IMG/VR virus record: IMGVR_UViG_3300030329_006012
Span: 96,001 to 160,000 of that record
Direction: 5' to 3' (one strand)
Origin: a virus
Length of the DNA: 64,000 bases
In this document: positions 2-46,800 of the stretch, one piece after another
Layout: each line of letters starts with the position of its first letter
How positions within the stretch are numbered: position 1 is the first letter of the stretch
Translations under genes and position numbers: made by a program
Notes under the pieces: model-generated
What the model was told of the DNA's origin: nothing
The model's database searches: none
What the model saw: only the letters and a program-made list of their open reading frames with translations

Positions 2-30
2 TTGACACGGAGGCATCTTTGAGTTATATT
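2..30 (+). promoter_or_regulatory. sigma70-like promoter
   Basis: TTGACA (2-7), 17-nt spacer, TATATT (25-30) upstream of the polymerase gene. Confidence 0.75.
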
Positions 31-41700: not shown

Positions 41701-42950
41701 GTCACTTCTTGCCTAGCAAAGTTGGGCAGACAGGCCAATGGTTCCGCTTCTTCATTGCGGAAAAGCACGTCAAGGGCATTGCCCACAACAATGGCAAGTG
41801 GAACATCTCAGAAGCCAACAGGTGGGGCTCTTAATGACGTTCTTGGAGTGGGAGATATACTACCATTGGGAGTTAGAGGACGCTGTGGAGACAACCAAGG
41901 GGCTCATAGAGGCTGCCAATGGCATCCTGCCACAGAAGCAGATAGAGGCCCTGAGAACGCTTGTGAGCCTTGCAGAACACGTAGCCGATAGAGGCACACT
42001 AGATGAGGAGACTAACAAATGGAAAATAAAGTAACAAACAGCAGGGGAGACAGCCACCTTCAAGCTGGAGATTTAGTTAGAGAGGTTTCTATAAGGGCAC
42101 TCAAGAAGGGTTCGCCCTATCAGTTGGGTATTGTCTTATCCATTATTAATTTTGATAGGGATGTTCACAAGAATTCTGCCAAAATCAAGTGGCCTGATTG
42201 CGCGGATCCTTTGTGGCACCCAACGCGAAGGCTGGAGAAGATGAGTGATTAAGCCTGGAGATTTGGTTAAGCATGAAGATGCTGAATTTAGCCCTGTGCC
42301 AGCCTACAGAGATCAGGTTGGTCTTGTCCGCGCATACGACAAGGGAAGTGACGGCACCACACTTTTATCTTTCGTGGAAGTGGTGTGGCTACCTTACACT
42401 GGTGGGTGTCGAACGTTCCACCACACAGACGCACTAAAGAAGGTAGAGCAATGAAGGTTGGAGATTTAGTCAGGGCAAAGTACGTGGGTTATGAGGGGGA
42501 AAGACAAGTCTTTCTTATTACCACGGTAAGGCGACTAGAGGATCATCCCTTCTTCAAGCAAGGCGGCATGCTCTGCCCTGCTGACCACAACCGCGTCGAT
42601 GCCGTATCGCGCTGCATCAAGACAGGCTGGCTACACTACATTGTTGCAAGCCGCAACGAAGATTATGAGGTAATATCATGATGAGCATAGGAGATTTGGT
42701 AAGGTATGACCCCAAGATGTTCAGGGAGCCCACATTGTCTGAGAAGCAGTCTCGCCCCTTTGGTTGGCTAAAGGATGACTACGAAGGCACAGAACAGGGA
42801 TGGGTAGGGCTGGTCCTAAAAGTAGATGAGAACATGTGGGGGAACCGATGGCACCACAAGCAAGACAATGGGCTTGGCTATGAGATTCAATGGAGCCACG
42901 GACTTAGAGAAAAAGTATATGCTTTTGAGATAGAAGAGGTTGAGGAATGA
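38779..42950 (+). other. Array of about 18 small hypothetical early-type CDSs: 38779-39114, 39114-39320, 39313-39504, 39504-39758, 39760-39987, 39989-40192, 40194-40340, 40342-40557, 40535-40756, 40758-41036, 41045-41263, 41278-41475, 41472-41834, 41834-42034, 42019-42252, 42245-42454, 42451-42681, 42678-42950
   Basis: Head-to-tail coupling and strong SD (AGGAG/GGAGAATA); last four carry GDLV KOW-like motifs; some starts adjusted to SD-proximal ATGs. Confidence 0.65.
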
Positions 42951-43723
42951 AAAAGAAAGAATTTAAAAACGGAGTTGTTTATCTCGGAGATTGCCAGGAA
43001 GTAATGGCATCACTAGACAGGAATTCAATTGAGGTGTGTGTTACATCACCACCTTACAATCTTAACAAGAGATATTCAAACTACGACCACTCAAAGACTA
43101 GCAAGTCAATGACGGAGAAGTATGACAAGTGGTATGAAGATGATATGCCAGAATGGGAATACCAAGGCTGGCAACAGTCAGTCATTCACTCTCTGATGAG
43201 AGTCTGTGCCAGTAGCATCTTCTATAACCACAAGGTTCGCTTCGCTTGGCACAACCGCAACATCTTTCGTTCTGAGAGCAACCTGCACCATCCGATGCAA
43301 TGGTTGGCCAAGTTCCCCATCTGGTGTGAGATCATATGGGACAGGTGCGGCATAGGCAACCCATCAAGACGCTACCACATTCAGGAGGAGCGAGTCTACC
43401 AGATTCAGAAGCCCCGCAAGTGGAGCAATGACATGGGCCTAACCAACGTGTGGAAGATTCCGCCATCAAGAAATGATGGGCACGTCTGCACCTTCCCAGA
43501 GAAATTGGTTGAGAACTGTATCTTGCCTACCACAGAAGAAGGTGACACGATCATTGATCCCTTCTTGGGCTCTGGCACCACTGCAGTCGTGGCTATCAAG
43601 CACAACCGTCGCTTCATCGGCATCGAAAAGGACGAAGAATACTTCAAGCTGGCCTGTGAGAACATTGCAAAGGCAGAAGAAAACAGCACAAAGAAAGTAC
43701 TTGACACATCCCCAAGGGTGTGA
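42947..43723 (+). CDS. Orphan beta-class DNA methyltransferase (N4-C/N6-A)
   Basis: GDC, VTSPPYN, HVCTFPEKL, IIDPFLGSGTT, FIGIE. Confidence 0.92.
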   Translation: MKKKEFKNGVVYLGDCQEVMASLDRNSIEVCVTSPPYNLNKRYSNYDHSKTSKSMTEKYDKWYEDDMPEWEYQGWQQSVIHSLMRVCASSIFYNHKVRFAWHNRNIFRSESNLHHPMQWLAKFPIWCEIIWDRCGIGNPSRRYHIQEERVYQIQKPRKWSNDMGLTNVWKIPPSRNDGHVCTFPEKLVENCILPTTEEGDTIIDPFLGSGTTAVVAIKHNRRFIGIEKDEEYFKLACENIAKAEENSTKKVLDTSPRV

Positions 43724-43729
43724 TAAAAT
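43701..43729 (+). promoter_or_regulatory. sigma70-like promoter
   Basis: TTGACA-17-TAAAAT with TGTG. Confidence 0.8.
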
Positions 43730-43735
43730 GTAATC

Positions 43736-43841
43736 AAGAGAGGGATCATCTTCCCCTGCCTCAACCGGGTGTATGTACGTAATCCTCATACACTTGACGG
43801 GCAGCAAGTCGGCAGGGGCAACTGCTCATCTCTCTCGTTTT
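43736..43841 (+). ncRNA. Candidate structured RNA (sRNA, riboswitch-like leader or ribozyme)
   Basis: Nested stems GAGAGGGAT/ATCTCTCTC, CCCCTGCC/GGCAGGGG, GTGTATG/CATACAC and alternative GGGCAG/CTGCTC, between a promoter and the next SD. Confidence 0.55.
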
Positions 43842-43855
43842 AACAAGGAGATACT

Positions 43856-46800
43856 ATGGAGTGGATGACACACCGAGCGGAACTGGAACAGAGAGTAACT
43901 ACGTTAGAGATGGTGCTGGTGGCAACACACAAGGCACTTGGAAACATTAAAGAGGATGTTCACTTCTATGGTGCGGCCAACGCAGCAGATAGTCTGGACG
44001 AACTTCAGGACAAACTAGAAGAGGTGATACAGTGTTTGAATTCTTAGTGTTATTTGGTATCTTTTATATTTGTTTATGTCAAACCAAGGAGTACAACCGT
44101 GACTAAAATTAACCCTTTTGATTTGCCAACTGAAGAAGAGCGTAGAGTACGAATTGTCCTTAAAAACATTGAGTGGGACACCAACACTTCTACGGGCTAC
44201 CATGATTATATTAACCAGAAGCTCCCATCTACGATGAGCATCCCTGTTGACAGCAACCTTCCGGAAGAAGAGATGGTGGCTGCAGCCATCGATTCAGCTT
44301 CGGACGTGTGGGGATTCTGCATCACTGATTGCGATGTTGAACCCGTTGACTATGGCTCACCTAAAGCAGACGATTCGTATGCCAGTGGAGACTCACTATC
44401 TGACACCCTTGATTATGAGGGGGAGATATTCTAATGGCTCTTACTATGGACGAGTTTTATAACATTGAGAGGGAGATGAGAAGCCATCGTGCCAATATGA
44501 GATATTACGAGGAATACTCACAGCGATGGACAGACGCAAGGTTGGAATTAGAAAGACTTCAGGGGGTAAAAAAAGAAAACCACATGGTTCCAAAAGTCGG
44601 TGATTTAATCACAGATGAGCAATACCCAAATGAAGGCGCCGCAGTCGTGCTAGAGGTCGGGGACAGAAGAAGAGAGTCGGATGTTTACCGAGTGTTGGCT
44701 CCGAAGGGAGTTATGTGGCTTAACAAGGGATATGTAGAATATCAGTGTCGCTTGTTATCTTAGGAGCTAGTTATATGTATGGAAGGATACGCTGGAGTTT
44801 TCTTATATATAACGCTGCTAATAGCAGGTTTCAACCTCCTAGTTTTTTTATTAACACACACACCCCTTTAAGATTGGAGCAATATGTGTTATGTTAAGTT
44901 ATGGTTTTTGCAAAAATATGTGATGAAGCTCTCAAAGGCAATTGGTATTTGCTCTATTTGGCAGACATAATTGTCTGGTTTGCCGTAGGCTACATTTGTG
45001 GCGGAGGAATGATAAGATGAAAAAGACTATACCAGATGTTAGTGAAATTTTAAATGCTTGTGATAAAAAAACTAGGTTTTCGATAAGAAGGCCAGAAGAT
45101 GCGAAGGAGAAGGCAGTGGAAGATATGTTAGAGAACGAAGCGCCAGGAATGATGGATTTTACGACTATGACGTTGGGAGATCTCATTGGTGCGGCCCACT
45201 CTTTTAACCGAGAGATGTTGAGTTCGGCTGCAGATACGGATCAGAGAGTAGCCTATTTTACTCTTTTTGCTTTTGAGGAGCGAGCAAAACGACTTCAGGA
45301 GCATTTTGAGCATGTTCAATAAATTTAAAAAAGACGATTTAGTGGCCTATTCTGCTTATCCCAATTCTATTCCACTGGGCATTGTCAAGGAAATTAAAGA
45401 AAAGAAGGGCAAAGCAGTTGTGATGGTTTATGTTCTTGACACCTGCATCGAAGATGAGGTTGGGGTAGTTAAGTGTGTGCCCTATCATAAACTTGAGAAA
45501 GTGGCAGAGGGTGTTTTAACATGAGTCTGTCTTTAAACTCAGAACAGCTTACTTACCTCTATGAGACACTACATGATCGTAAGACCATGAAGAAGGTGTT
45601 TAGGGATTCTAAAAAACAGAAGCGACTTTGTGACAAAATAATGTCTCTTATTGAAGGAGAGATTCTACAACATTCGTCGGAGGAAGAGGTACATGACAAA
45701 GGATGATGGCTGTGTGTTTATGTATGAAGTGGGAGACTTGGTTGAGTTGGCTCGGTTTGGATACGCCCCAATTGATGATAAAGACAGGGTGTTCGGGACA
45801 ATCATCGGGAAGATAGAGCCGATTGACTATTATGTGCCACGATACAAGGTTCGGATTCAATACAAATCCCACGATAGGGAAAACGCGCTAGATGAGTACG
45901 TTCTTGCAGGTAAAGAGCGCATCATCACGGTGATGGAGTACGACATCGCGGGAAAGACAACAGGGGACTCTCAGGAGTAGGCGCTTGCGCCGCAAACTTG
46001 ACGGAAATTTTTTTTATGACAGGGGGCAAAGAGCGGCTAAAAAAAGGTGATTTGGTGCTAGTGCAGCCCATGCGATACTGCTATACCTTCACTTCGGGCA
46101 GCATAGAAAGCCTCAACACAGAAGGCCACACTAAAGATTCCCCCAACCACACAGCACACCATTGGACAGAGGATGGTTTCAAGGCCCGTGTCATTAGCGT
46201 TGAAACACTACTTACCCCCCACAATGAAGAGGAATATGTAGAAGTAAAGCTCTTTGGGAGAGGTAGAAAGCACTTTGTGAAACGGAATGAAGAGAAAACC
46301 AAGGTGGTTTGGGTTCAAAGGCGCCTAGTTAGTAAGTGTAAGGAAGAATAAAAAAAGGAGACTAACCAACCAAAGTGACCGTCATTAGAGACTACATCGA
46401 TTACCCACCTGCAAAACCAGGAGACTTAGTGAGGTTATACAATTGCTACACTTCCCATGTGGAAAACCCAGCAACAATTGTTGGCCTTTTGTTGGGAACG
46501 AGTTGGGAGGCACAGTTTGAGTTTTATGAAGTGGCAGTCTTGCAGGACGAACAGGGGTATGGCGGATATGTTCAGCGATACTTAACTAGCGATTTCTTTG
46601 TGGGTGTGCTTCCGCCACCTGCAGAAAGTGAGGAGGAAAAAGATGAGCAGAAAGAAAAAGAATAAATACAGCACAAAGCAGGACAATGTTCCGCATGATG
46701 ATGAAGAGAGAAAGAGAATGATTGAAGAGTTTATCTCCCAGAACGCAGAAGATGGAGAGTGCTTTCAGTGCTATGAGGCAATTCCCTATGAAGGGGCTCA

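Follow-up and report, generated by a model that had tools for sequence, protein, structure and literature searches.

We found that the DNA directly behind a strong early promoter of a marine phage specifies what comparative analysis of its sequence indicates is a real, conserved and strand-specific structured RNA of no catalogued family. Our tentative reading, held with a little less than even confidence, is that this RNA would serve as a cis-acting early leader that switches conformation on its own transcript. The element lies in the window, as we call the whole 64,000-nt stretch of DNA that we analyzed, which comprises bases 96001–160000 of a 190,225-bp phage record rated as complete. The genes of the window are carried on the + strand and include those for a DnaE-like polymerase, a DnaB-like helicase, a ribonucleotide reductase and a GroEL-like chaperonin; judged by the DnaE-like polymerase, even the closest cultured phages share only about 31% identity with this one. 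The element is placed between a DNA methyltransferase gene (42947–43723) and the 63-codon gene P0001 (43856–44047); unless another locus is named, coordinates are those of the window, and the features described lie on its + strand. We recovered the element in four sequence variants from marine metagenomic phage contigs, namely that of the window and the L079, L161 and L003 types. The phage lineage bearing the RNA is found in many ocean metagenomes, Tara samples included, and as far as these searches reach the RNA is restricted to one small clade of ocean phages.

The promoter is of the sigma-70 early type, with TTGACA at 43701–43706, a 17-nt spacer and TAAAAT at 43724–43729 (score 11/12), an extended -10 TG at 43721–43722 and a predicted transcription start at about 43736. 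When we scanned 12 kb of the window (38–50 kb), this site (43701–43729) was the top promoter-like sequence. It lies within the last codons of the methyltransferase gene, the stop codon of which (TGA, 43721–43723) provides the extended -10 TG. The same promoter geometry is common to relatives with and without the RNA. Across the whole genome, strong sites of the form TTGAC(A/T)-16..18-TAnnnT numbered 22 on the + (coding) strand and eight on the minus strand, and several of them precede small-gene arrays with very short leaders. The clearly intergenic strong promoters elsewhere in the genome have leaders of 12–64 nt with little structure, none of which resembles the element; a structured leader is thus not a generic feature of this phage.

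Between the outer stem of the RNA and P0001, a U-run of four residues (43838–43841; six residues in L003) is followed by the Shine–Dalgarno (SD) sequence AAGGAG (43845–43850) and the ATG of P0001 at 43856. The U-run is part of the module and is missing from RNA-less leaders. A scan of the + strand at the element called no canonical terminator. The terminator-like features consist of an outer stem that encloses a 79-nt insert, followed by a G and U4, which is a short U-run; L003 has U6, but its hairpin is weak (5–6 bp) and ends 3–4 nt upstream of U6.

Folding of the + strand RNA (43736–43845) gave a minimum free energy (MFE) of -41.4 kcal/mol, compared with -27.2 ± 3.5 for dinucleotide shuffles (z = -4.1; 0 out of 200 shuffles were as stable), whereas the minus strand gave a weaker MFE of -37.3. 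The + strand structure contains four G.U pairs which, together with its better energy, argue for RNA rather than DNA and for the transcribed strand. Its outer stem pairs GAGAGGGAT (43738–43746) with ATCTCTCTC (43828–43836) and includes one G.U pair. Nested inside is the 8-bp helix A, invariant in 4/4 variants and formed by segment s1, CCCCTGCC (43753–43760), and segment s3, GGCAGGGG (43811–43818). The innermost element is hairpin H (43766–43796), with a 10-bp stem (43766–43775/43787–43796) that has two G.U pairs and an 11-nt loop (43776–43786). A first-pass annotation made from the letters alone had predicted a promoter-driven, highly structured RNA here, with nested stems, alternative pairings of GGGCAG, a T-run, an SD and an ATG; each of these features was found where it had been placed, the promoter scored best in the 12 kb scanned, and the + strand fold was more stable than both its shuffles and the minus strand.

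Two further segments give the RNA its alternative pairings. Segment s2, GGGCAG (43799–43804), is complementary both to CTGCTC (43822–43827) and to CTGCCT (43756–43761), and can therefore pair either with s4 as pseudoknot B or with s1 in an alternative fold; s4, which is CTGCTC (43822–43827) and invariant, can pair with s2 in the pseudoknot or with s3 in a small hairpin. Helix-by-helix scoring placed the nested state (outer stem, A and H) at -36.7 and the alternative state (outer stem, H, s1:s2 and s3:s4) at -37.7, making them near-isoenergetic. In the pseudoknot-free ensemble, the three variants that possess the outer stem were 99% nested, and L003 was predicted to be mostly in the alternative state. 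A classical coaxial pseudoknot of A and B would probably be sterically awkward, with a linker of only 3 nt between A and s4. The trinucleotides GAC (43796–43798) and GUC (43808–43810) bracket s2, and G43796 also belongs to hairpin H; GAC, GUC and the putative pairing of the s2 loop with s4 were invariant across the four variants. At the outer stem, the 5' strand is an SD look-alike and the 3' strand can alternatively pair with the SD, as it does in a 145-nt fold. The 3' strand in the window lineage accordingly has two partners, the look-alike or the real SD; this three-part arrangement is not kept in L003.

Related loci were gathered through the methylase, two downstream proteins and DNA patterns. 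The L079 type was identical in L167–L176 and came from many Tara and other ocean samples, and the L161 type was also present in L162, L163 and L202. Both BLAST and R1, a covariance model of the element core, indicated a single copy in the 190-kb genome. When applied to five related virus records and 34 related loci, more distant relatives included, R1 recovered the four variants already known and no others. No homologue turned up when the element was compared by BLAST with 50,697 cultured phage records, and pattern scans of viral contigs recovered the L003 contig alone. A first pattern scan of 185,579 species genomes produced no matches; a second produced 22 taxonomically scattered 18-mer matches, close to the chance estimate, all of which failed the model. 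The pattern used to scan metagenomes was too loose, giving at least 117 matches, with one genuine instance (L079) among the matches listed.

The core of the element (76–78 nt) was 91–99% identical between variants. By comparison, the four-fold sites of neighboring genes were 44–75% identical in P0001, 60–76% in the methylase and 14–55% in P0002, the protein product of which is only 30% identical between the window and L003. Fisher tests of the core against four-fold sites gave p = 1e-10, 7e-9 and 1.5e-8 in three comparisons, so the core is under strong constraint. The promoter spacer and the 3' flank adjoining the core are more diverged than the core itself, and recent transfer of a larger block is therefore not the explanation; purifying selection on the core would be the simplest reading.

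Substitutions among the variants bear on the fold. Hairpin H has one compensatory change (U-A to C-G in L003), one U-A to C.A mismatch that recurs in L079 and L003, and two or three variable positions in its loop. In the outer stem, a G.U pair becomes G-C in the L079 type, and L003 retains essentially none of the stem. Segment s2 reads GAGCAG instead of GGGCAG in the L161 type, which turns a G.U pair with s4 into A-U and breaks the pairing with s1. The support for the fold thus amounts to one compensatory pair, two wobble-to-Watson–Crick changes and one recurrent mismatch. Two pairs changed on both sides, a number matched by 38 out of 500 shuffles, and covariation was accordingly not significant, as only four variants are available and all are at least 91% identical in the core. 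Homologue collection with a covariation analysis had been suggested as a check on the RNA: it yielded four constrained variants, but covariation appears to support the fold only weakly. Both complementarities of GGGCAG invoked by the first-pass annotation are present, but the L161 substitution, a single event, favors the s2:s4 pseudoknot over the alternative s1:s2 fold. Changes are tolerated in H, the strands of which have one partner common to both states, and segments s1–s4, with two partners each, are almost invariant. This pattern would be expected for a bistable element, and equally for a protein-binding site.

Close relatives that have the same promoter and the same gene precisely without the RNA identify the module as an accessory insert. 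In L160, the promoter is identical over 41 nt, and the SD and a P0001 homologue come about 10 nt behind it; the entire module (about 100 nt, U-run included) is cleanly missing. Related promoters lie directly ahead of P0001 in L177–180 and L186, and L181–185 have no promoter. In three other loci (L002, L165 and L166), the promoter persists together with the RNA's first 15 nt, with the core and most of P0001 gone. A short AACA-type direct repeat is present at the module's insertion boundaries. As the same gene occurs behind the same promoter without the RNA in these relatives, the RNA appears to be dispensable for basic expression.

The placement of the core is nevertheless fixed where the RNA is present. 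In four out of four variants, the core begins 11–18 nt after the predicted start and ends 13–19 nt before an SD and ATG-GAR-TGG, and this promoter-to-SD placement is the same whichever of two unrelated promoters precedes the core and whichever of two different ORFs follows it. The second context is that of L003, where the core lies behind a different strong promoter (TTGACA-17-TATAAT), an extra ORF has been inserted after the methylase, and the core leads into U6, an SD and ATG-GAA-TGG, the last being fused to a small hydrophobic peptide. The extra ORF, of about 100 codons (L003:3737–4040), lies between the methylase and the RNA, which has its own strong promoter at L003:4046–4073. The arrangement in L003 is an apparent example of promoter and module swapping in this region. 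In L155–L157, another ORF encoding a 56-residue coiled coil and another strong promoter replace the promoter, RNA and P0001 upstream of a P0002 homologue; this lineage suggests that the first genes at this position may be interchangeable.

The first gene behind the RNA, P0001 (43856–44047; SD at 43845–43850), encodes a helix-rich, coiled-coil-like protein of 63 amino acids. Its amino acid identity of 90–97%, set against four-fold sites that are 44–75% identical, shows that it is a real gene under purifying selection; a search of PHROG, the sole library searched, returned no match for it. Some metagenome gene calls of 89–91 residues (P0034; L202:764–1039) correspond to P0001 extended upstream into the RNA and look like annotation artefacts. 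A 24-codon ORF (44032–44106) encodes a hydrophobic peptide bearing the motif LFYICLCQT; it starts with GTG, has a GAGG 8 nt upstream, overlaps the 3' end of P0001 and the 5' end of P0002, and is conserved in all relatives examined. In L003, this 24-codon peptide lies directly behind the RNA, fused to the MEW start of P0001. The element itself does not behave as a coding sequence. We considered an embedded ATG frame of 31 codons (43773–43868) and rejected it as a peptide: it has no SD, every substitution among the variants alters a residue, and its phase relative to P0001 differs between variants. A conserved peptide, which had been named as the finding that would speak against an RNA, is thus not what the region encodes.

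Comparison with known families supported the view, already put forward in the first-pass annotation, that the RNA belongs to no known family. At gathering thresholds, Rfam 15 (4227 models, including hammerhead, twister, pistol, hatchet, HDV-like and all riboswitches) gave zero matches in the window, and at E <= 10 the only match at the locus was a chance one to a snoRNA (11.4 bits against a threshold of 38). ARAGORN detected no tRNA or tmRNA in the window. That annotation had gone on to suggest a small RNA, a riboswitch-like leader or a small ribozyme; a conserved, strand-specific structured RNA is what the comparisons point to, and nothing supports a ribozyme.

One likeness that we considered in detail was to the RNA between promoters A1 and A2 of T7 and its relatives. 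We built a covariance model (R2) of this T7-type early-leader pseudoknot RNA from an alignment (A5) of nine diverse Autographiviridae copies, in which the hairpin and a 3-bp GAC/GUC helix covary. T7 itself scored 79.6 bits, whereas our element scored 2.8 bits (E = 0.63 in 601 nt), and we rejected membership in this family. The two RNAs nevertheless share a position directly behind a strong host-type early promoter and the words UCAACCGG and AAGUCG, and the element may also have, like the T7 type, a GAC...GUC hairpin with a loop able to pair downstream. The former (43761–43768, at the junction of helix A and hairpin H) occurs in both the A1 and A2 leaders of T7 (T7 nt 498–719), and the latter (43806–43811) occurs in the A1 leader, in the same order. 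This sharing of words may be coincidence, and we treat it as a lead only, homology being unsupported by the covariance model. The T7-type RNA differs from the element in its pseudoknot helix sequences and its 10–11-nt linker, in having an upstream hairpin of 4–5 bp where the element instead has helix A and hairpin H, and in often being multi-copy when the element is single-copy. A distant structural kinship of the element with the unannotated T7 A1–A2 leader RNA would, in our estimation, be even less likely than the new class of riboregulator considered below.

The put RNAs of phage HK022 are about 70 nt long, fold into two stem-loops immediately downstream of PL and target RNA polymerase (PMC9378689). 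Their antitermination is factor-free and goes through the zinc-binding domain of the polymerase beta' subunit. Like putL and putR, the element is a protein-free structured RNA of about 70–100 nt that comes right after a phage early promoter read by host RNA polymerase and is under strong sequence constraint. However, put consists of two tandem stem-loops, whereas the favored fold of the element has nested helices and a possible pseudoknot; two tandem stem-loops arise in the element as the alternative state only, both the MFE and 99% of the ensemble being nested in three variants. With filters off, R1 reached no more than 6.1 bits (E = 2.2) across the HK022 immunity region, and we rejected put membership. 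In T4-type phages, PeSL (promoter-early stem-loop) cassettes are simple, terminator-like stem-loops with a G-run, a loop and a C-run; they adjoin early promoters and recur many times per genome across hyperplastic regions (PMC2839356, PMC4122927). The element shares with them early sigma-70 promoters, a hyperplastic setting of small genes and modules that are gained, lost and swapped, and its presence/absence pattern and the L003 promoter swap would fit shuffling of the PeSL type. We rejected identity with PeSLs on definition, the element being a single-copy, multi-helix RNA of about 100 nt downstream of its promoter.

Riboswitch and attenuator leaders with pseudoknotted aptamers resemble the element in lying close to the promoter, in combining a conserved core with pairings that exclude one another, and in having a U-run and an SD right behind them. 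The element differs from such leaders in having no Rfam riboswitch match, no ligand clue in its downstream genes, and no canonical terminator or clear SD sequestration conserved across variants; measured as a riboswitch, it has the conserved core and the alternative pairings, with an ensemble that is 99% in one state in three variants. A miniature inverted-repeat mobile element was rejected: inverted termini and a short flanking repeat are present, but each genome carries a single copy and the inverted termini are missing from L003. Readings as a CRISPR-repeat mimic, a retron RNA, a type III antitoxin repeat or a replication origin were dropped from the sequence reading alone, there being neither repeats nor a reverse transcriptase nor an A+T-rich unwinding element; we noticed no likeness of the element to known CRISPR repeats.

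The element is best described as a discrete accessory RNA module of about 100 nt. It separates a strong early promoter of host type from the ribosome-binding site that serves the leading gene of an operon of small genes, and its 76-nt conserved core is made up of the 8-bp helix A, hairpin H and four mutually complementary segments, s1–s4. In the mechanism that we propose, s1 would pair first with s2 during transcription; s3 would then displace s2, forming helix A, and the freed s2 could pair with s4 as a pseudoknot. The state reached would set both what share of polymerase stops at the U-run and how far the SD is exposed, and a ligand, a protein or RNA polymerase itself could bias it; in this way the RNA might influence termination, stability or translation of the transcript. 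We counted for a switch its fixed position between promoter and SD, the module-linked U4–U6, the constrained core, the near-isoenergetic states, the prediction of L003 mainly in the alternative state and the almost invariant s1–s4. Counted against it were the lack of significant covariation among four similar variants, the one H pair broken in two variants, the absence of the outer stem and its possible anti-SD role in L003, the 3-nt linker, the G-to-A change in L161 that weakens s1:s2, and the 99% occupancy of one state in three variants, as well as the short U-run, the lack of a called terminator, the existence of RNA-less relatives and the lack of a ligand clue in the downstream genes. It is distinctly unlikely, in our estimation, that a new class of phage riboregulator is represented here, with the core as its sensor domain, in the form of a pseudoknot switch that binds a ligand, protein or polymerase and can be swapped as an accessory module among early operons of abundant ocean phages.

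Several other explanations have to be set against a switching leader. The main one is that the RNA could be a stand-alone early small RNA or protein decoy of about 100 nt that ends at the U-run and acts in trans, either by pairing with an mRNA of host or phage or by sequestering a protein or defence component of the host, with read-through supplying the downstream genes. Its own strong promoter, the module-linked U-run, conservation over the whole length in single copy and an accessory distribution typical of anti-host modules in early regions all speak for this, as do 5' and 3' ends that are paired in the outer stem in three variants, as in many stable RNAs. The terminator, however, is weak or atypical and was not called, the SD of the next gene lies within 13–19 nt in every variant, complementarity to the phage genome does not extend beyond 11–12 nt, which is the chance level, and the outer stem is lost in L003; we consider this explanation rather unlikely. 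A passive role, in which the RNA would be a 5' stabilizer or an RNase III/E processing site without switching, seems improbable. Hairpins at the 5' terminus stabilize bacterial mRNAs, and a 5'-terminal stem-loop would shield the early mRNA from decay that depends on the 5' end. The outer stem begins 2 nt from the predicted 5' end and the long composite helix resembles RNase III substrates, but a simple hairpin would not need 76 near-invariant nucleotides, loops and junctions included, and it is exactly the 5'-terminal stem that L003 lacks.

A further possibility is that the nascent RNA, like put, binds the host polymerase during elongation and suppresses its pausing or termination along the early operon. 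The position right behind an early promoter matches that of putL (PMC9378689), the constraint at the sequence level is that expected of an RNA contacting a protein surface, and the alternative state would consist of two tandem stem-loops. Set against these points are the insignificant score of R1 in the HK022 immunity region (6.1 bits, E = 2.2), the nested favored fold, the lack of evident strong terminators downstream and the retention of the operon in RNA-less relatives, and we hold a put-like action to be very improbable. Equally little weight, if not slightly less, falls on a new class of self-cleaving ribozyme, or on a feature acting at the DNA level (a miniature inverted-repeat mobile element or a protein binding site, for instance). 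A compact, pseudoknot-capable and highly conserved core, terminal inverted repeats formed by the outer stem, the AACA-type direct repeat and clean presence or absence would suit such readings; yet no ribozyme family matched even at E <= 10, the element is single-copy in every genome searched, L003 has no inverted termini, and the G.U pairs favor RNA.

Structured RNAs close to promoters are among the first molecules made by a lytic phage. To our knowledge, very few promoter-proximal phage RNAs have a known role, put being one example. For the element described here, a good candidate motif, nature provides ready-made controls, since the same promoter and gene occur both in combination with the RNA and without it. 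If the RNA were only a stabilizing leader, it would be of local interest. If it were a switch, or an RNA that binds polymerase or another protein, it would represent a new RNA class and could become a tool with which to study early gene control in uncultured marine phages; and if kinship with the T7 leader were true, promoter-proximal pseudoknots would be a general early-infection device of lytic phages.
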